A DNA stretch of 64,000 nucleotides from a virus. Lineage: Duplodnaviria > Heunggongvirae > Uroviricota > Caudoviricetes. A program made the translations under genes and the position numbers. Where the stretch lies: the IMG/VR virus record IMGVR_UViG_3300005095_000172, positions 1-64,000 of that record; one strand, written 5' to 3'. This document shows, piece by piece, positions 5,751 through 59,384 of this stretch. The number at the start of each line of letters is the position of its first letter. The stretch's first letter is position 1. The notes beneath the pieces are model-generated. The model ran no database searches. It had not been told where the DNA came from and saw only the letters and a program-made list of their open reading frames with translations.

Positions 5751-6866
5751 TTATTCAATTTCGCCCAACAACTTTCTAGCTTGTTCTAGTTTAGAAGTTT
5801 CTTTGATAATTCTTTCCTTAATCATCTTCTCCATTTTTTCTGGAGAACTAGGATAGTCATAAAGACACTTCATAACAATACCAAAGTCTTGAGTTTTTGA
5901 ATGCTCAATAGCGAAAGATTTTCTATCGTTAAAATCAAAGAACTTGTTTCTAAGTTCAACGGCTTTTTGAACTCTATGGTTATAGTATTTTTCAATTTTC
6001 TCGATAATTCCCTCAATTCTTACTCTTTCTTCAGAACCTTGCTCAAGTTCAGCTAAAACATCATCAATTTCTTCATTTAGTATCAAGTCAATCAATGTGT
6101 TTTCCTTACTAAGATCATCTAGAAGACCGTGTCTTTCAATGTACCAATCTGTTTTTACTTTGATGAATTGACCGTCTTTGAATTTTACTACATATCCTTC
6201 AATATTTTCTTCAGAAGCCTTTCTCTCAATAATTTCATCTAAAGTCAAATCAAATGTTTCGGCAGCAGGAATTGACATTTCTTTCGCAAACTTTTTTACA
6301 TCATCTGTAGAATAGTATTCACCAGTTTCTTTATCCCGAACTTGAAGTAATCTAAGTTCAGTTCTTTCATAAGTTAGGACAATCTTATTTCTTGGAGAAA
6401 CCAATTCAAAAAGAAAAACTTTATCTAAATTGGCATCTAAGACATCTTGAATAAAACTTGTGAAAAGAATAGTACTAACCATTTTTGTTTGGTCATTGTC
6501 AAATGACATCTTTGTCTTTGGAACAAATTTTCCATTAGGTAGTCTAACGAATGAAATTAATGAACCATCTTCTTTGAAAGAAACTGAGTCAATTTCTTTA
6601 TCTTTCACGACTCCATATTGTACTGTTTCACCTTGGTTCAGGTTCAGGAACTTTGTCAACATAGGAGTTCTTTCCCAAACATCTTCATTTTTAAGGAAAG
6701 TTAAACCCCTCAATTCCCACGCATCATTTTCAATGAAGTCATTTTCAAACGCTAATCTGTAATTGAACAAAGCGTATTCGTACCCTTGGACAGTACCACT
6801 TTGAACATAAAATGCCTCTGAATTTTCGGTAATTTTAAGTGCTTCTTCATAAGTAGGTAATTTCAT
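5751..6866 (-). CDS. rnlA: RNA ligase 1 (T4 RnlA family)
   Basis: Nucleotidyltransferase motif I 'FKEDGSLIS' is identical in pattern to T4 Rnl1 'TKEDGSLVS'. N-terminal 'ELRGLTFL'/'FLNLNQGE' resemble T4 'ECRGIMFE'/'FFNLNENP'. Confidence 0.8.
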   Translation of the reverse strand: MKLPTYEEALKITENSEAFYVQSGTVQGYEYALFNYRLAFENDFIENDAWELRGLTFLKNEDVWERTPMLTKFLNLNQGETVQYGVVKDKEIDSVSFKEDGSLISFVRLPNGKFVPKTKMSFDNDQTKMVSTILFTSFIQDVLDANLDKVFLFELVSPRNKIVLTYERTELRLLQVRDKETGEYYSTDDVKKFAKEMSIPAAETFDLTLDEIIERKASEENIEGYVVKFKDGQFIKVKTDWYIERHGLLDDLSKENTLIDLILNEEIDDVLAELEQGSEERVRIEGIIEKIEKYYNHRVQKAVELRNKFFDFNDRKSFAIEHSKTQDFGIVMKCLYDYPSSPEKMEKMIKERIIKETSKLEQARKLLGEIE

Positions 6867-6876
6867 TTCTTTCCTT

Positions 6877-7389
6877 TTAAAATTGAATGATTTTCTTGAA
6901 CCAATTATTTGTTTTTTCTTTGAAACCCTTAAGTTCTTTTTCTAGTTCTTTATTTCTTTCCTTAAGATTTTGAATTTTCTTGAATTCTTTGTATGTGGTC
7001 GGATTACATTTTTCTAAAGAAATCATATCGTGTAAGTTATCGTGACATTTTATACATAACACTACTCCATTAGATTCATCATAGGCTAAGTTTTGATAGT
7101 ATGACTTAGGATAGATATGATGTGCTTGAAACCCACCTTTAGGATTCTTCACTCCACATACATCACACCCATTACCGTTCTTCTTAACTCTATCAGCCCA
7201 ATTTCGAAGCCTGCCTTTAGAAAGTGTTGGGTTAAGTTCCCGTTCTAATTGCTTAATTTCCCAATTTAGTTTCTTGACCTCACCATTCAGTTCTGAAATC
7301 CTTTCCTTTGCTTTTCGGTTAATCTCAAGTGTTTCATTATGGGTTTTTATAGTAGTTAGTCCGATTTTAGAAAGAATGGAAAACTTCAT
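6877..7389 (-). CDS. HNH endonuclease (free-standing homing-endonuclease-like) with coiled-coil
   Basis: 'CDVCG...HHIYPKS...CIKCHDNLH' HNH zinc-finger motif. Confidence 0.7.
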   Translation of the reverse strand: MKFSILSKIGLTTIKTHNETLEINRKAKERISELNGEVKKLNWEIKQLERELNPTLSKGRLRNWADRVKKNGNGCDVCGVKNPKGGFQAHHIYPKSYYQNLAYDESNGVVLCIKCHDNLHDMISLEKCNPTTYKEFKKIQNLKERNKELEKELKGFKEKTNNWFKKIIQF

Positions 7390-7634
7390 TTTTCAAACAC
7401 CTCATCTATATCTACCCAATATGAAATAGTATCAGCTGTTTCGAACCTAACTTCGTCTTCTTCTATACCGAAAGACCTGACTAACATAGTTCTAGAAACA
7501 CAATCAGCATCGAAATCTAGTTTCACTGATTTTTCGAAGGTATGTATATCAAACTCATCGAATCTAATCATAAATTCTTCGGTGAAATTTGTAAGTTTTC
7601 CCATTAGTTCTTTAAAAGTGAATGAAGTTTTCAT
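7386..7634 (-). CDS. hypothetical protein (its promoter is disrupted by the IS insertion)
   Basis: ORF track. It keeps the conserved RBS-ATG half of the promoter element, but the -10/palindrome half now sits on the far side of the IS. Confidence 0.4.
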   Translation of the reverse strand: MKTSFTFKELMGKLTNFTEEFMIRFDEFDIHTFEKSVKLDFDADCVSRTMLVRSFGIEEDEVRFETADTISYWVDIDEVFEK

Positions 7635-7640
7635 TTTAAG

Positions 7641-7652
7641 CCTTTCTTTTTA
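7641..7652 (-). promoter_or_regulatory. RBS-proximal remnant of a promoter element copy, cut off by the IS607 insertion
   Basis: Matches the consensus only up to 'cctttcttttta'. Confidence 0.45.
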
Positions 7653-7827
7653 TATGTTATATGATACTCTCCAAATATAAAGTAATTGTAAGTAATTAAT
7701 CTTTATATAAACTTAAACAAGCGTTTAAATCCAGAGTTCCTAATTCATCGACCTTGCTATAAATAGTCTTATTTGGTCTCCAAAGGCTTAATTTTATAGT
7801 GTTTCTGGGTATCCCTCAGTAGCACTT

Positions 7828-8991
7828 TTAGTTTTCTTTGAGTAACTCTAATCCTCTTCTAAGGATGTTTAGAGCAGCATTTATATCTCTATCTTCTTCA
7901 AAACCACAATGTTCACAATTATATATGCGTTCTGATAATTTCAGTTCATCTTTAACACAACCACACCTTGAACATGTCTTTGAAGAAGGATAGAATGTTT
8001 CTATTTGTACTACACTAACTTGGTTTTCGTTAGCTTTGTATAGAAGTTTGGTGACTAAATCACCCCAAGCAACATCTTGTATCGCTTTAGAAAGTCTTCT
8101 ATTTTTCATCATGTTCTTAACTTGAAGACTTTCTAAAGCAATGAAATCATAAATATTCACGAGTTTTCTTGTAATTTTATGGTTTCTATCATCTCTTTGA
8201 TTTTTGATTTTACGGTGTATCTTTTGTACTTTCTTCTTAGATTTTATTCTATTCTTAGAACCTTTCTTTCTTCTTGAAAGTTCTTTCTGAGCTTGTTTAA
8301 GCTTCTTAGAACTTTTATGAGTAAGTTTAGAATTCCCTATTTTCTCTCCATTAGAAGTTATCACTATGTCTTTTATCCCTAGATCAATACCAACTGGTTT
8401 ACTTTGTCCTTTGACTTTGAAAGAAGATATTTCAACTTTGAAAGTAATTGAGATAAAATATAAATCTCCTTCTTTAACGATTGTATAACCAGTAACTTTC
8501 TCTGGTAAATCCCAATTAGTCTTGTGTTTTTTGAATTTAATTAAATGGTCTTCTTTCGAATAAGGAGATGACTTTCCTTTTGGAATGACTATCTTGTTAT
8601 CATTGAATTTAACTCTTAACCCAGCATACATATTAATACTCTGAGTCATATTCTTCCTTGATTTGAATTTAGGATACCCACCATTTCTATAGAACCCTTG
8701 GAATCCTTTATAAAGGTTAGCTAATGAAGCTTGTAAGTAGTCATTAGCTGAACGATACAGAAAAGAGTGAGTTTGTTTAAGTTCTGTTAGAGATTTTCCT
8801 AATTGAGTTTGATTAGGGATATTTGGATAATCTTCGTTTTTAGAATAATGGCCAAATTTGAAATCTTTTATTTCTGATAAGATTTGGTTATAAACAAATC
8901 TTTGTTGACCGAATAATTCATATAGTAGAGCTTTTTGTTTAGCTGAAGGAAGGAGTCTATATTTATTAGTTCTGATGATACTTCTTGACAT
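7828..8991 (-). CDS. tnpB: TnpB (IS605/IS607 OrfB; RuvC-like RNA-guided nuclease family)
   Basis: C-terminal 'CSRCGCV...YNCEHCGFEEDRDINAALNI' RuvC-III/zinc-finger signature, typical length, basic K/R-rich central region. Confidence 0.85.
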   Translation of the reverse strand: MSRSIIRTNKYRLLPSAKQKALLYELFGQQRFVYNQILSEIKDFKFGHYSKNEDYPNIPNQTQLGKSLTELKQTHSFLYRSANDYLQASLANLYKGFQGFYRNGGYPKFKSRKNMTQSINMYAGLRVKFNDNKIVIPKGKSSPYSKEDHLIKFKKHKTNWDLPEKVTGYTIVKEGDLYFISITFKVEISSFKVKGQSKPVGIDLGIKDIVITSNGEKIGNSKLTHKSSKKLKQAQKELSRRKKGSKNRIKSKKKVQKIHRKIKNQRDDRNHKITRKLVNIYDFIALESLQVKNMMKNRRLSKAIQDVAWGDLVTKLLYKANENQVSVVQIETFYPSSKTCSRCGCVKDELKLSERIYNCEHCGFEEDRDINAALNILRRGLELLKEN

Positions 8992-9032
8992 AAACCCTCC
9001 TTATTTTAACTTATTATAGTTATTTAATACTC

Positions 9033-9623
9033 TTAAGTAGATTTTAGAAGAGTTTCTGTAGATTTTAATATTTTTCTTCTATTACTATACATTTTCATAC
9101 TAAAATGATGAATGATAGAAATTAAATCTTCAGTTAATTCTTGTTGAAAATCTTCTTCTTTAGAAGAATTCAACACAACTATTTCTACTCCAAACATTTC
9201 AAAGAAAGTTTCAAAATACCCAAACCCAAATCTCGTAAGTCTGTCTTTATATGAAATGTAAATTTTTGAAATTTTACCATCTTGTATATCTTTTAGTAGA
9301 GAATTCAACCCCTTTCTATTTTCATTCATGCCAGAAGCTATGTCGCTATATACATTTTCTGGAACAACTCCAGTACTAACCATGAATTCTCTAATTATCT
9401 TTTCTTGTCTGATTAAATCGTCTTTTTGTTTCGTGTTTGAAACTCTCGTGTATATCACACATTGTCTTTCTTTTTGTTCTTTTTCAGTGAAAACGTCTTC
9501 ATACATGAATTTCCTAGAAGATAATTCGATGTATTTTACTTTACCGTTTCTTCTCCAATTATTCAGAGTCTGAGTGGTTATTTTGTACTTTTCTTTCATT
9601 TCTTTAGCTGATAGATAACCCAT
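9033..9623 (-). CDS. tnpA: IS607-type TnpA serine recombinase (MerR-like HTH + resolvase catalytic domain)
   Basis: 'VIYTRVSNTKQKDDL' catalytic-Ser motif; N-terminal HTH 'ITTQTLNNWRRNGK'; lies immediately upstream of tnpB. Confidence 0.8.
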   Translation of the reverse strand: MGYLSAKEMKEKYKITTQTLNNWRRNGKVKYIELSSRKFMYEDVFTEKEQKERQCVIYTRVSNTKQKDDLIRQEKIIREFMVSTGVVPENVYSDIASGMNENRKGLNSLLKDIQDGKISKIYISYKDRLTRFGFGYFETFFEMFGVEIVVLNSSKEEDFQQELTEDLISIIHHFSMKMYSNRRKILKSTETLLKST

Positions 9624-9689
9624 TTTCCATTCCTTTAATTAAGTTTAAATTAAAGCTATTTAATTATAATAAAATATTGGAATAGAAAG

Positions 9690-9715
9690 TTATTATAACT
9701 AAAGTTAGCTTAAAG
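9690..9715 (-). promoter_or_regulatory. distal (TATAAT + palindrome) remnant of the same promoter copy, now facing tnpA
   Basis: 'ttattataactaaagttagcttaaag' with no cognate RBS/ATG at the usual spacing. Confidence 0.45.
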
Positions 9716-9800
9716 AAAGATAAATATGTGATTTTATATTTTATTTTTGAAAGATTTTGTTGATATTTAGAAAGAGTTTTTGAAGTAAGGAATGAAAGAG

Positions 9801-10160
9801 CTAGTAATCCCAGCTCTTTTCCCATTTTAATGGTTTTGTTTTTAACGAGTCTTTGGTCAGTCGTTGATACATTCTTTTATACGCATTTGCTTCTTTTGAA
9901 TTACCTGATTCTAATGCTTCTTTGTAAAGACCAAACGCTTCTGAAATATTGTGTGCGTCACACTCTTTTTCTCTATTTTTGAATGCGTCTTGAATACTAG
10001 AAATAAAAACCTTTTCATAGTGACTAGCACCATAGCCATTAGATTCCCCGTAGATATCGTATTTTCTTCTAAGGAAAGTGAGTAAGTTTTCTTTCGAGGT
10101 AAGATGTCTAACAGACATTAACCTCTCACTCATTGTTTCAAGAAGCTCTGAATCAGTCAT
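9801..10160 (-). CDS. hypothetical protein
   Basis: ORF track. Confidence 0.4.
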   Translation of the reverse strand: MTDSELLETMSERLMSVRHLTSKENLLTFLRRKYDIYGESNGYGASHYEKVFISSIQDAFKNREKECDAHNISEAFGLYKEALESGNSKEANAYKRMYQRLTKDSLKTKPLKWEKSWDY

Positions 10161-10458
10161 CTTTAACCTTTGCTTCAGCTCTCATTTTCCTGACATCTCC
10201 CATAAGTTCCATTTCTTCTTCTCTTTTTGGTGGTTCGGTCACCATATCCATTTTTGAAGTATCTTCGATTCCTACAGAAAACTTCCCTTTTGCATCAGTA
10301 AAATCAGCGTTTTTTTGGATAGAACCCTTGAAGTTACAAAAATGTAGAGTTGCTCCTTTAAAGTTACAACCAGATAGATTTGCGTCTCTGAAGTTCGAAT
10401 ATGAAAGGTCTTTTCCTGAAAAGTCTTTCCCTGATAAATCTTGTCCTCTAAAATTCAT
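10153..10458 (-). CDS. pentapeptide-repeat protein (start moved to MNFRG with RBS AAAGGAG)
   Basis: Tandem A(D/N)LSG-type pentapeptides: 'FRGQDLSGKDFSGKDLSYSNFRDANLSGCNFKGATLHFCNFKGS'. Confidence 0.6.
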   Translation of the reverse strand: MNFRGQDLSGKDFSGKDLSYSNFRDANLSGCNFKGATLHFCNFKGSIQKNADFTDAKGKFSVGIEDTSKMDMVTEPPKREEEMELMGDVRKMRAEAKVKDD

Positions 10459-10483
10459 GATTTCTCCTTTTGAATGGTTTCTT

Positions 10484-11413
10484 TTATTTAACTGGCACTT
10501 GAATGAATGGAGAAGACTTATCCCCAAGCATTACTTTAGGCTTAACTCCATCCCATCTATCAATTTCAGCTTTCTCATTTTCAAGTTGTTTATATGAAAG
10601 TACTTCTGGAGTCAGCGATTCAGCAATCATTTTGTTAGCCTTAGCGATGGCTGTAGCCTCGATTAATCTGGAATCTGCGATCCCTTGTGCATTAACTCTT
10701 TTCGCTTCTGCTTCACCTCTTTCCTTAGCTACCCTTTGCTTGGCTTCTGCTTCAGTTCTTTTAATTTCAAGTTCTTTTCTAGCAACTTCTTCATTCATTT
10801 GTTGCTTAGCCATAATTGACTTTTTCAACTGTGGGGGAATATAGATGTTCTGAATAGACGCTGCTGACACCTTAACACACCCTTCCCCAAAGATGCTATT
10901 GAACTTCTTATTGAGATTTTCCTTAATCTTCACCGAGTACGCATCACGCTTTTCGTTCAGGTCGTACACCGTTGCCGTACCAATTACACCCCTTGAGACC
11001 GAACGAACTTTCGGGATAACGATTTTCTCATCCCATACCCCGTCAACACCATAGTGTTTTCTGATATCAGACGCACAAGTTTTGCTCAGGCTGTAGTTCA
11101 GTACCATATCCAACGGCACTTCCATAGACTCACGGGTCAAGATGGTCAAGTGAGTATCATAGATGATCTCGTGACTGTCCTCTTTCTTAGCCGTTTGGTT
11201 GTTCATAATCAAGGCTTTGACCTTAGTATTATAGACATCGATATCCGTCAGCGGATTCAGCGAGAAATGGAAGCCCTCGTGCAACGCTTCATTCTGTACC
11301 TCACCATTTACAACTTCTACCCCAGCTTCACCTGAGTCAATAGTCGTCATATAACACCCACTCATCATAAAAGGCATTGCTGCCATCAATCCAATTTTAA
11401 TCATTCGTTTCAT
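10484..11413 (-). CDS. SPFH/band-7 (prohibitin/HflK-like) lipoprotein with a C-terminal coiled-coil
   Basis: Lipobox 'MMSGC'. SPFH-like core. 'EIKRTEAEAKQRVAKERGEAEAKR' coiled-coil. Start placed at MKRMIK, which has an AAGGAAG RBS. Confidence 0.55.
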   Translation of the reverse strand: MKRMIKIGLMAAMPFMMSGCYMTTIDSGEAGVEVVNGEVQNEALHEGFHFSLNPLTDIDVYNTKVKALIMNNQTAKKEDSHEIIYDTHLTILTRESMEVPLDMVLNYSLSKTCASDIRKHYGVDGVWDEKIVIPKVRSVSRGVIGTATVYDLNEKRDAYSVKIKENLNKKFNSIFGEGCVKVSAASIQNIYIPPQLKKSIMAKQQMNEEVARKELEIKRTEAEAKQRVAKERGEAEAKRVNAQGIADSRLIEATAIAKANKMIAESLTPEVLSYKQLENEKAEIDRWDGVKPKVMLGDKSSPFIQVPVK

Positions 11414-29436: not shown

Positions 29437-29480
29437 CCTTTCTTTTTAACTGTTATATTATAGCTAAAGTTAGCTTAAAG
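29437..29480 (-). promoter_or_regulatory. promoter element copy
   Basis: Consensus match. Confidence 0.6.
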
Positions 29481-34066: not shown

Positions 34067-34110
34067 GCCTTTCTTTTTAACTGTTATATTATAGCTAAAG
34101 TTAGCTTAAA
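34067..34110 (-). promoter_or_regulatory. promoter element copy
   Basis: Consensus match. Confidence 0.6.
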
Positions 34111-57096: not shown

Positions 57097-57312
57097 CTAC
57101 TCTTTATTTTCCAATAATATAGCTTTCATTTCATCAGGAAGAAGTTCTTCTGGACCTTCTTCAGTGAACTTTAGAAAGATTTCATTTTCTAAAAACTTAG
57201 TTTTCCCATACAAGTTGTTTTCTAGGACTGTAGTATTAATGGGAAACTCTGGTTCCCCACATTCCATACTCACATACACTTCCCCATCAATAGTAATTTC
57301 ATAAATTTCCAT
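57097..57312 (-). CDS. hypothetical protein
   Basis: ORF track. Confidence 0.35.
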   Translation of the reverse strand: MEIYEITIDGEVYVSMECGEPEFPINTTVLENNLYGKTKFLENEIFLKFTEEGPEELLPDEMKAILLENKE

Positions 57313-59384
57313 TACTCAACCTCGATATTGAATTTTCTGAAACTAGATTGCTCAATAGAATAGATGAATTCATCAGAACCACTGATTGGTATAGTTAGGT
57401 TAAAATCAACTTCTGATAATTTACTTTTCTTTTGGCAAATATAAGCTAACACCAAAGAAGCATACTCATATAATAGGTTAGAACCGACAGGAACATGGTA
57501 TTTCTTAAAAATATTATTCACACCTTTGATGTTTTTACCGTAAGAAGGAATTCCTTCTGATATGATCAGTTCACTGTAAAAATCGACAAGTTCTTTAAAG
57601 AAATCGTGTGTATCATCCAAATCAGGGAAGACAATTTCATCATCAGCATTTAATCCAATTTTTTGATGGAGTTTATTTTCAAGAACTTGATACCCTTGAG
57701 CACCATTGAAATCATACAAGTGGAGGTTAGTAACGTGGTGGTTGTAAGAACCAAGAGACACTTCTGGGTCAATCTCGTCTTGGATAGATTGTAGAATCAT
57801 TTCTTGTAGGAATGTCCATTCAAAAATATTTATACTCCCCCAACCCCAAATTACATCACCTGACCGAGACTTAACATTCATATGTAGTCTTTTATCAGGA
57901 GTGACAAAAAAGTCCATGGCCATGTTGCAATTATGAACAATCCAACCACCAGATTTAAGAATAAAATTATGATTATCTTCAACGGTAATATCGAAAACGC
58001 CAACAGATTCTTCCACATATTCTACGCCTATGACCTTAATGAACCCCATTGAAGTGTCTGAATTTTCTTTAATTCTTCTTTCAAATACTTTATGGTCACC
58101 GATTCTATTTTTTAATTGGTGTTTGAAATTCTTCCAAGAACCAAATTTATCAACTATCCTTGTTAAAGAAGGAAATCCCATGGTACCAAGATTTTTATTT
58201 GCGTAATCATAAGAAAGAGTTTCCAATTCTTCTATTCTCTTTTCGAAGATGTCTAAAATTTCTTCTTTCGAAAGTCCTTTAAACATTAGCCCGTGAGAAT
58301 ATCCAGGATTTTGTCTATTGGCTTCGACTTTCTTTTCAATAACCTTCTTATTTCTGCTTGGATTATTTAGTAATTTATGAATTCTATTGTGTTCACTTTC
58401 TGTCAACAGCTCTAAATTTTCCTTAGAATTATCAAAATGATCTCCATTTTTATGATGAACAGTCATCCCTTCTGGAATTTCTCCATAAAAGTATTCAAAT
58501 GAATCTCTATGCCAAGAGGTCAAATTCGAGAATCTCTTATTTTCTCTTAAATTCTTTTTAATCAAACCACCGTTCTCATGAATTGGAGTCGAAAGTATAT
58601 AGTCACCTATTTCGATTTCAGATGCTTTTTTCTGTATTACGGTGTATGGTTGTCTGCTCCTTCCAACAAAAGAATATTCTTTCATATACATAGAATGATC
58701 TTCAGTAACACAAACCTCATCTCCGTTACTTAATGTGATCTTTAAGTATCTACTCACGTCTTTTGTTTTACCAGACCACTCAACTCTTTTTAGTTCCACG
58801 CATTCTGAACTTTCGTTATAAGAGTAAACCAAATCTTCAGTTGTTACTTCAGATATTCTTTTATACCCTGAGTTCGTGAGAATTTCTGTATGAGAAAGGA
58901 AACAAGGTTTGTCCAATGTTTTATCAAGCCCATACACATTCTCCAAACTTTCTTTAGTATCCAAGTTAGGGTCACCAATGTAAAGAGTAGCTCTTCTTGT
59001 ATAAATTCCTTCGTTTCTAAATTGTTCAATCACGTCATCTAATTGATTACCGTTCTTAATTCTTTCAGGATAACCTCCACGCCAATTTTTTCCGTCATCT
59101 GAAAAGTCTTTTGCTCTTGGTAAGAAAAACGATAGATAAGGGTCTATTCCATTGGACCCAGCGAATACCCAAAAAGTTTCTGCGATAGAAGCAAAAATAT
59201 TATTCTTTCTTCCATTCAGTGAAAGGTGTCTAGCCTTTGGATTTTCGATAGTAGAGAAGAAGTTATAGATAGTGTTGATGTCTCCATTCCTTGATTTTGT
59301 TCTATAACCATTGTAGATTAATTCTTCTAACGCTTTCAAGACAGCGTCGTTTATTGTCTTTCCTTCTATAAAGGTAGGCTTCAT
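57312..59384 (-). CDS. thymidylate synthase-family enzyme (ThyA or dNMP hydroxymethylase) carrying an HNH intein at the catalytic Cys
   Basis: Exteins 'IFASIAETFWVFAGSNG' and 'LDKP|C..NMAMDFFV..RSGDVIWGWGSINIFEWTFL' align to the TS 'ELLWF..G', 'PCHxxxQFYV', 'RSxDxxLGxPFN' regions. The intervening 325 aa have intein blocks. Confidence 0.8.
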   Translation of the reverse strand: MKPTFIEGKTINDAVLKALEELIYNGYRTKSRNGDINTIYNFFSTIENPKARHLSLNGRKNNIFASIAETFWVFAGSNGIDPYLSFFLPRAKDFSDDGKNWRGGYPERIKNGNQLDDVIEQFRNEGIYTRRATLYIGDPNLDTKESLENVYGLDKTLDKPCFLSHTEILTNSGYKRISEVTTEDLVYSYNESSECVELKRVEWSGKTKDVSRYLKITLSNGDEVCVTEDHSMYMKEYSFVGRSRQPYTVIQKKASEIEIGDYILSTPIHENGGLIKKNLRENKRFSNLTSWHRDSFEYFYGEIPEGMTVHHKNGDHFDNSKENLELLTESEHNRIHKLLNNPSRNKKVIEKKVEANRQNPGYSHGLMFKGLSKEEILDIFEKRIEELETLSYDYANKNLGTMGFPSLTRIVDKFGSWKNFKHQLKNRIGDHKVFERRIKENSDTSMGFIKVIGVEYVEESVGVFDITVEDNHNFILKSGGWIVHNCNMAMDFFVTPDKRLHMNVKSRSGDVIWGWGSINIFEWTFLQEMILQSIQDEIDPEVSLGSYNHHVTNLHLYDFNGAQGYQVLENKLHQKIGLNADDEIVFPDLDDTHDFFKELVDFYSELIISEGIPSYGKNIKGVNNIFKKYHVPVGSNLLYEYASLVLAYICQKKSKLSEVDFNLTIPISGSDEFIYSIEQSSFRKFNIEVE
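57930..58904 (-). mobile_element. intein (325 aa) with an HNH homing-endonuclease domain, inserted at the TS-family active-site Cys
   Basis: Begins 'CFLSHTEILT', block B 'TEDHSMY', HNH 'HHKNGDHFDN...EHNRIH', ends 'VEDNHNFILKSGGWIVHN' + C. Confidence 0.8.

Follow-up and report, generated by a model that had tools for sequence, protein, structure and literature searches.

An IS607-type element within a phage promoter unit

The stretch of DNA analysed here, referred to as the window, comprises 64,000 nucleotides (nt) of a Caudoviricetes record (IMG/VR IMGVR_UViG_3300005095_000172, positions 1 to 64,000), and carries what is apparently an intact insertion sequence of the IS607 family in a large phage genome. 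The element occupies 7661..9691 on the minus strand (2031 bp, AACTTTCT...GGAGAGTATCAT), an extent based on the ends of its relatives and on the reconstruction of the promoter that it interrupts; the relatives' termini thereby correct the 7653..9715 given in an earlier note on this DNA. Two genes follow each other on the same strand, the serine transposase gene tnpA and, downstream of it after a 41-nt spacer with an AAGGAGG ribosome-binding site (RBS), the RNA-guided nuclease gene tnpB. The insertion lies directly after the TATAAT of one copy of a repeated promoter-like unit, along the direction of transcription and without target duplication, so that family models, structure matches and promoter reconstruction all bear out the proposal of that note that an IS607-type tnpA-tnpB element sits within one promoter copy and in the same orientation.

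The transposase (tnpA, 9623..9033, minus strand, 196 amino acids (aa)) passes the NCBIfam IS607 transposase model NF033518 with 180.5 bits (cutoff 110) over model positions 1-184 of 187, contains a Pfam Resolvase domain, and matches the catalytic-domain structures 3lhk and 6dgc of the IS607 family with E values of about 1e-29. The catalytic serine that had been attributed to it could be located as the nucleophile Ser62, in YTRVSNTKQ.

The nuclease (tnpB, 8991..7828, minus strand, 387 aa) was identified from Pfam, NCBIfam, structure alignments and motif positions. Its Pfam domains are HTH_OrfB_IS605, OrfB_IS605 and Cas12f1-like_TNB (PF07282, E 4.7e-22), and it passes the NCBIfam guided_TnpB model with 284 bits against a cutoff of 100. 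The narrower exception models were not passed (NF038280 IS607_TnpB, 168 vs 350; NF038281 IS200_TnpB, 297 vs 425), and among these NCBIfam TnpB models the broad guided_TnpB subfamily is the only one that accepts the protein. Full-length alignments were obtained with ISDra2 TnpB (8h1j/8bf8, E 1e-49, 173 bits) and with the IS607 TnpB of ISFba1 (8IAZ, E 7e-40, 140 bits), and the protein is nearer to ISDra2-type and ISCaje-type proteins than to ISFba1. These types recognise AT-rich target-adjacent motifs (TAMs), and an AT-rich TAM is therefore plausible here as well. The RuvC D/E/D residues, on which the earlier note had made its assignment depend, are present as D203, E287 and D369 and align with the catalytic positions of ISDra2, which we take to be D191, E278 and D361 from the alignment and from established knowledge of that enzyme. 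A zinc finger of the CxxC..CxxC type (CSRC...CEHC) is formed by C340/C343...C359/C362.

The unit that received the element is repeated in at least 14 full copies in the window, all on the minus strand, with the consensus TTTAAGCTAACTTTAGCTATAATATAGAAGTTAAAAAGAAAGGCTTAAAATG; the copies include those at 2504, 17648, 29479, 34110, 50120 and 54447. The unit lacks a sigma-70 -35 box. Its TTTAAG box precedes TATAAT by only 11 nt, an interval that holds a palindrome (AGCTAAnTTTAGCT), and this spacing, speculatively, resembles that of activator-dependent middle promoters of the T4 MotA type. A sigma-70 scan called neither the promoter units nor the right end of the element as promoters, for want of a -35, so the label "promoter" rests on conservation, on TATAAT and on the fixed distance to RBS and ATG.

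The upstream half of the split unit (TTTAAGCTAACTTTAGTTATAAT, 9692..9714, minus strand), with TTTAAG, palindrome and TATAAT (9697..9692), adjoins the left end of the element. The downstream half (ATAACATATAAAAAGAAAGGCTTAAAATG, 7632..7660, minus strand) consists of the untranslated region (UTR), RBS and ATG of a phage gene of 82 aa (7386..7634, minus strand, with no Pfam match and no family), and its length of 29 nt equals that of intact units. When the 14 copies are turned into a position-weight matrix, for which the 99.9th percentile of the window lies at -11.9 bits, genuine units score 42-74 bits and either half as it stands about -8 bits, while removal of exactly 2031 bp (7661..9691) yields a joined TTTAAGCTAACTTTAGTTATAAT|ATAACATATAAAAAGAAAGGCTTAAAATG that scores 58.2 bits and differs from the units at 29479 and 34110 at two positions only, both of them in the downstream half. 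All deletions scoring more than 40 bits share the length of 2031 bp, and the junction slides between -2 and +1 owing to the ATA at both junctions; this 3-nt microhomology is all that is shared there, and the exact restoration of the promoter leaves no target-site duplication. Since only a 2031-bp deletion rebuilds the unit, the element must separate the -10 hexamer of one promoter copy from its transcribed part, and the matrix reconstruction thus confirms the view that a conserved promoter unit has been split, with its upstream half facing tnpA.

The consequences for the downstream gene are probably milder than had been supposed. A search of the minus strand from 7300 to 10200 revealed no intrinsic terminator between tnpA and the gene at 7634, and the element's own end sets a TATCAT hexamer exactly in the former position of TATAAT, so read-through expression of the 82-aa gene is likely. 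The description of the locus as an orphaned gene and a captured promoter therefore stands in its second part, the intact promoter half pointing into tnpA, while "orphaned" is too strong for a gene with no terminator found ahead of it and TATCAT in place.

Ends, putative crossover site and predicted guide RNA

Because the collections contain nothing closely related to the phage or to its element, the ends were set with distant relatives (loci and contigs bearing L numbers below), namely TnpB loci 54-60% identical and TnpA loci 63-69% identical, most of them in phage-like contigs. At the right end, identity among L008, L025 and L027 extends through ..GTATTAT, after which they continue with AACC, ATAA and AGGA, respectively; L013, L048 and L055 are identical up to ..GCTATTAT and continue with GTTA, AACA and GTAT; and L056 and L058 form another near-identical pair at different sites. 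The right terminus of the window's element reads ..GGAGAGTATCAT, with its last base at 7661, and TAT(T/C)AT following ..TATTTnnnnn emerges as a terminus conserved across the element family in unrelated contexts (TATCAT in the window, TATTAT in all 13 related right-end contexts). Since relatives share this terminus at different sites, the TATCAT next to the downstream gene is the element's own end, and the TATGATA at 7660-7666 (TATCAT on the minus strand), which had been taken for a promoter -10, is the conserved right terminus; a phage -10 at this position was rejected for the same reason. One element type among the TnpB relatives of 54-60% identity is present at three sites in phage-like contigs (L008 4168-4369, L025 1-172 and L027 1-172). 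The copy in L008 retains an intact tnpB and RNA but only a stop-containing remnant of tnpA, which suggests spread or retention of this type without a resident transposase.

The left end (LE, 9624..9691, minus strand) is a non-coding segment of 68 nt that begins with the motif AACTTTCT at 9691..9684 and runs to the ATG of tnpA. When seven left ends are aligned, similarity begins right after an invariant TAAT (TAAT|A in 7/7), and the sequences upstream of TAAT are unrelated; the motif itself is AACTTTCT in five of the seven loci, AACTATCT in L060 and ATGTTTTCT in L009. The flank is TATAAT in four cases (the window, L013, L009 and L060), TGTAAT in one and TTAAT in two. A TATTAT flank initially assigned to L009 was dropped, as alignment with L007 puts its left end further upstream, after TATAAT. 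TATAAT accounts for 92 of the 969 TAAT sites of the window, and with this background, drawn from the window only, its presence in 4/7 flanks has a binomial probability of about 0.002. In L060 the left flank (TTTAAGGTGTTTTCTGTTATAAT) shows the TTTAAG-N11-TATAAT of the window unit, with RBS and ATG after the right end, and a same-strand gene start follows 15-45 nt past the right end in the window, L025, L055, L059, L060 and L010. The TTTAAG-N10-12-TATAAT architecture also occurs in contigs L009, L010, L012, L055, L056 and L060. A pattern scan of viral contigs for the left-end DNA gave one chance match, without tnpA or tnpB.

The two termini (AACTTTCT and GAGTATCAT) are not inverted copies of each other, terminal inverted repeats are absent, and the sole inverted repeat is subterminal, 32 nt long and 75% complementary, in AT-rich DNA. 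The 8-mer ATTTAAAC, a candidate for the short direct repeats that TnpA binds in IS607 ends, occurs in direct orientation in both LE and the right end (RE), and such 8-mers are unsurprising in DNA of 29% GC. A palindrome of 6+1+6 nt (AGTTAT-A-ATAACT) was spotted by eye, without statistics, across the junction of promoter and left end (9685-9697, minus strand), and could have a role in TnpA recognition or be a coincidence.

Where does strand exchange take place? Published IS607 elements are described as GG-specific: "All insertions were at a GG dinucleotide" for the IS607 family (PMC6188088), a "strict GG dinucleotide requirement" for CboIStron (PMC10690162), and insertion confined to GG, combined with G-rich TAMs, according to these two papers and PMC13565253. 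None of the 7 left and 14 right contexts compared here has GG at the element junction. The base after the right end is A in eleven of the 14 contexts, G in two and T in one; position -3 is A at the left junction and T or C at the right; and the 7 left and 14 right junctions all have in common a single dinucleotide, AT at -2,-1 (TAAT|AACT; TAT(T/C)AT|N). As serine recombinases exchange strands over an identical 2-bp core (PMC6188088) and AT is the only dinucleotide shared, we infer from the junction sequences that the crossover dinucleotide is AT rather than GG. In the same way the last four bases of TATAAT, TAAT, would constitute target and TAM.

The RNA encoded downstream of tnpB has conserved, covarying helices. 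A guide-RNA scaffold (omegaRNA or right-end element RNA, reRNA) of 166 nt is predicted at 7661..7826 on the minus strand from an Rfam match, RNAalifold, covariation and the layout of ISFba1; it begins just past the tnpB stop codon (about 4 nt) and lies wholly downstream of the gene. An omega-RNA at the right end that reads into flanking phage DNA had been anticipated, and this part stands; the anticipated span over the 3' end of tnpB (7653-7900) does not, the scaffold running from 7826 to 7661 and the guide to 7641. From its 5' end the scaffold comprises, all on the minus strand, a stem H1 (AGUG/CACU, 7826-7823 / 7801-7798) that encloses an inner hairpin, a conserved linker (UAUAAAAUUAAG) between this 5' hairpin and a RAGATH-18-like module of P1, kink-turn (k-turn) and P2 (7786..7737) with CGAUGAA as in the Rfam consensus, a 3' domain of two hairpins closed by CUCU/GGAG (7736-7733 / 7672-7669), and an 8-nt tail (AGUAUCAU, 7668..7661).

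RNAalifold on eight relatives found 13 pairs in the 5' hairpin, P1 and P2, with compensatory changes in 8/13; an earlier MAFFT/RNAalifold run on seven sequences, in which the hairpins were misaligned, had returned no structure. Three helices (H1, P1 and the stem J that closes the 3' domain) were then extracted by hand and checked by script in 7-12 loci, including elements of Campylobacter phages. The outer H1 stem appears as AGUG/CACU, AGAG/CUCU, CUGG/CCAG and CGGG/CCCG, with 2-3 pair types at 3/4 positions; P1 appears as ACUGU/GCAGU, CUUGU/GCAAG, UCUAU/GUAGA and UUUGU/GCAAA, with three pair types at the first position, two at the second and, at position 4, a third variant that is compensatory; and J also covaries. 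Conservation of the RNA stops at TATTAT, the element boundary. The bona fide RAGATH-18 loci of Clostridial metagenome-assembled genomes, used as positive controls, score 59-63 bits with the Rfam model, and share CUGUGGAG...AAGAAGCAGUAAA with the relatives L008, L013 and L007. A k-turn pattern scan of genome contigs returned mostly chance matches, together with five genuine Clostridial RAGATH-18 loci.

In this family the guide starts at the first base past the right end (PMC10690162, PMC11061315), and the predicted guide accordingly occupies the 20 nt at 7660..7641 on the minus strand (ATAACATATAAAAAGAAAGG), a stretch that forms the 5' UTR and RBS of the 82-aa gene and would also be the target. 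Two promoter copies (29456..29437 and 34087..34068, minus strand) match this guide at 18/20 positions, with mismatches at positions 7 and 8, directly after TATAAT, and several further copies match it at 16/20; all of them are potential self-targets or future insertion sites. The two copies at 29456 and 34087 are the obvious off-target candidates. ISFba1 does not tolerate single mismatches at guide positions 1-13 (PMC11061315), and for this reason both copies are probably safe from TnpB.

Proposed mode of action and competing explanations

The explanation that we regard as best, and as probable, is an IS607 element that carries its own TnpA, TnpB and right-end guide RNA, resides in a split promoter and cuts the empty site. 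Gene content, boundaries and RNA conservation follow from the analyses above, and the remaining steps are drawn by analogy with IS605/IS607 systems (PMC10690162; PMC11061315). TnpA would recombine at the AT core dinucleotide, not at GG, and transcription from the phage promoter would start a few bases inside the left end, placing tnpA, tnpB, the scaffold and the 82-aa gene on one transcript. TnpB would process and bind the scaffold (7826..7661), with the next ~16-20 nt (7660..7641) serving as guide, and the complex would cut copies of the locus that lack the element, recognising ...TAAT followed by ATAACATATAAAAAGAAAGG. Such an empty target may arise by scarless TnpA excision, as the donor joint, or be met in a co-infecting sister phage, and repair from the element-bearing genome would then restore or spread the element. 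The occupied site would escape cutting because its right end, TCAT (TTAT in relatives), differs from TAAT at -3. The excision junction expected under this scheme is TATAAT|ATAACA (TTAGTTATAATATAACATATAAAAAG), the empty site TTAGTTATAAT|ATAACATATAAAAAG, and the circle junction ...GAGTATCAT|AACTTTCT.

Several observations weigh against this account. The Rfam RAGATH-18 model (RF03064) matches 7786..7737 with 23.3 bits and an E value of 0.39, below the gathering score of 44.9; it gives no match at all on the relatives L012 and L022, and since the relatives themselves miss the model, the RNA forms a divergent branch of the RAGATH-18 type. Two U-U mismatches occur in P1 of the window's RNA, its minimum-free-energy fold is no more stable than shuffles (z = -1.0), the AT core is a palindrome, uncommon among serine recombinases in need of directionality, and the TAM is read from seven left flanks only. 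Viral and metagenome contigs yielded no sister phage with an empty site, and the reconstruction is therefore based on paralogous copies of the promoter; searches with the two flanking proteins (119 aa and 82 aa) returned remote 35-residue matches or none from viral contigs, and none from metagenome contigs. A megablast of 6800-10600 against 50,697 phage records likewise gave no match. Finally, the window holds no second copy of the element and the protein database no other identical copy, which leaves recent mobility unproven.

These last points are also what speaks for the element being a stranded or co-opted passenger, whose TnpA no longer moves it, and whose TnpB and RNA are either idle or serve the phage as a weapon or homing device against competitors. 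The copy in the window is single, and its exact TnpB occurs once in the protein database, with the nearest relative only 60% identical; the right terminus is TATCAT, against TATTAT in all 13 related contexts; P1 of its RNA contains two U-U mismatches; and in several relatives (L007, L008, L013 and L059) tnpA has decayed while tnpB and RNA are intact. We nevertheless judge a passenger unlikely, since both open reading frames (ORFs) are full length and retain the catalytic Ser62 and D203/E287/D369, the left end retains the terminal motif of the family, and the guide still matches the reconstructed empty site, as for a functioning element.

It is very improbable that the two promoter halves are coincidental, 9692-9714 being a separate complete promoter or a part of the element, and the gene at 7634 having a variant promoter of its own with TATCAT as -10, so that no promoter copy was entered and the ends lie about where the earlier note placed them. 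A TAT(A/C)AT hexamer is indeed present in both, and the want of a sister-phage empty site suits this idea, but the exact register appears only on removal of 2031 bp, with two differences from the units at 29479 and 34110, the TAT(T/C)AT terminus is conserved in unrelated contexts, and AACTTTCT, directly after TAAT, is the conserved left terminus. Least credible of all is a canonical GG-type IS607 with its ends at GG dinucleotides (for example in TTTGGAGAG, 7672-7673, and near the start of tnpA or at 9811-9813) and with AT/TAAT as an artefact of AT-rich DNA: strict GG insertion in the literature (PMC6188088, PMC10690162, PMC13565253) and a GG 11-12 nt inside the inferred right end favour it, but such boundaries were rejected, as relatives have no GG at the matching right-end position (TTTATCTAG, TTTATTTGT, TTTCTTTGC), a single element found at different sites shows no divergence among its copies over the 8-9 nt past that point, and no GG-to-GG deletion rebuilds the promoter unit.

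If the element with TnpA, TnpB and guide RNA is as proposed, how far is it new? An RNA-guided nuclease in a lytic phage, which the earlier note had singled out, is not: phage records with TnpB homologues number 607 and those with an IS607-type TnpA 79, the second group including Staphylococcus phages of 135-142 kb, Lak megaphages, and Helicobacter, Campylobacter, Vibrio and C. botulinum phages, and the TnpB-only elements ISCaje2/3 of virulent Campylobacter phages were reported in 2010 (PMC2853527). As far as the searchable literature goes, what appears new is an IS607 lineage with AT crossover and TAAT target (ISfinder may list such elements), its recurrent location, with a -10 hexamer immediately before it and a gene start shortly after it, and a right terminus that would restore a -10-like hexamer in register. 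Apart from target and position, this is an otherwise ordinary IS607/TnpB element in a phage.

These features may be brought together, tentatively and with more doubt than confidence on our part, in an undescribed and mainly phage-borne branch of IS607, characterised by AT crossover, a TAAT/TATAAT (-10 box) target, a landing point between -10 and transcription start, a promoter borrowed for tnpA, tnpB and guide RNA, a restored -10, and homing, via a guide taken from a 5' UTR, into co-infecting phages whose copy of the promoter is empty. On such a reading, insertion would be tolerated in a tightly packed lytic genome because the TATTAT terminus restores a -10-like hexamer. If true, AT crossover combined with a TAAT TAM would mean that a serine transposase and TnpB have co-evolved a new shared target, and a nuclease of ~387 aa with an AT-rich TAM and a guide RNA apart from the coding sequence would be added to the genome-editing set. 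Should the preference for -10 boxes be real, it would provide a testable model for the survival of a transposon in a compact virulent phage and for its spread from one co-infecting phage to another by RNA-guided homing.

Phage context and comparison with known systems

The neighbouring genes mark a large phage (RNA ligase 1, polynucleotide kinase, NAMPT, thymidylate synthase, helicase and exonuclease), all ORFs of at least 230 aa in the window are on one strand, and the phage is plausibly virulent. A free-standing HNH endonuclease gene (170 aa, 6877-7389, minus strand) directly follows the 82-aa gene, whose stop codon it overlaps (ATGA), and is a second mobile-type nuclease less than 300 bp from the transposon. 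Further away, a 690-aa ORF (57312-59384, minus strand) encodes a thymidylate synthase (residues 14-163 and 486-589) with an in-frame HNH endonuclease domain at about 251-409, possibly as an intein-like insertion or as a homing endonuclease fused to the enzyme. Two distant phage TnpB loci came to light elsewhere: one in L002, a 267 kb IMG/VR contig (500-4300), has as neighbours a tRNA array and a match to the IS605-orfB-I RNA that falls short of that family's gathering score, and the other (L001, 2950-3062) is beside a "drum" RNA.

Among characterised elements, ISFba1 (PDB 8IAZ) resembles the one described here in its serine TnpA, in a TnpB of about 387-390 aa and in a guide RNA wholly downstream of tnpB. 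IS607 TnpBs of the ISFba1 type (~390 aa) use a reRNA derived from RAGATH-18 (Ren et al. 2024, PMC11061315); this RNA begins 13 nt past tnpB and is made up of a 5' motif, a 73-nt RAGATH-18 module, a 64-nt 3' motif and a 20-nt guide (PMC11061315). The same order of 5' hairpin, k-turn module with CUGUGGAG...AAGAAGCAG, 3' domain (~65 nt) and guide is seen here, whereas the Rfam RAGATH-18 model reaches only 23 bits and the internal hairpin is shortened and replaced. The TAMs of ISFba1-type elements are AGGAG/GAGGG, in contrast to the TAAT predicted here, and 97.8% of their strains are Firmicutes bacteria, not phages (PMC11061315). In RAGATH-18 loci, as here, it is also position -3 that differs (..GCAG vs the TAM AGGAG).

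The CboIStron of Clostridium botulinum combines a serine TnpA, scarless excision and insertion, a TnpB that cuts the donor joint, and a TAM that is also the TnpA target (Zedaveinyte et al., PMC10690162). The end of its scaffold mimics the TAM except at -3 (UCGG vs TGGG), as does that of the present element (UUAU/UCAU vs TAAT), and in CboIStron this difference (TCGG vs TGGG) protects against self-cleavage (PMC10690162). The two differ in that CboIStron has a strict GG core and a group I intron, whereas the element in the window has no intron and a putative AT core. With IS607 of Helicobacter pylori and IS1535 it shares the gene order and the absence of both terminal inverted repeats and target duplication (Chen et al. 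2018, PMC6188088; Kersulyte 2000), as well as a TnpA with N-terminal DNA-binding and C-terminal catalytic domains (PMC6188088); termini and targets are GG in those elements, and would be AT within TAAT/TATTAT here. More generally, the association of TnpB with serine recombinases is polyphyletic (PMC10691335).

The closest TnpBs in sequenced phages (47-51% identity) are those of ISCaje2 and ISCaje3, from the virulent Campylobacter phages CPt10/CP220. These elements live in large virulent myoviruses and use an AT-rich target, ATTTT (Timms et al. 2010, PMC2853527), and downstream of tnpB they have the same RNA module of 5' hairpin and k-turn as here; unlike the present element they contain TnpB only, are classed as IS200/IS605, and have another 3' RNA domain and other ends. 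ISDra2 TnpB is the best natural structural match (8h1j, 8bf8), with the RuvC D/E/D residues, the zinc finger and an AT-rich TAM in common or, for the TAM, plausibly so (Karvelis et al. 2021, PMC8612924), but ISDra2 belongs to IS200/IS605, relies on a Y1 transposase and single-strand transposition, and encodes an omega RNA that extends over the 3' end of tnpB. A functional analogy, finally, may be drawn with the homing endonuclease genes and mobile introns of T4-like phages, which cut the empty allele and are copied in during repair between co-infecting phages (PMC13565253); these recognise their target by protein contacts and have no transposase, whereas the phage element proposed here would find its target by an RNA guide and possesses a transposase of its own.

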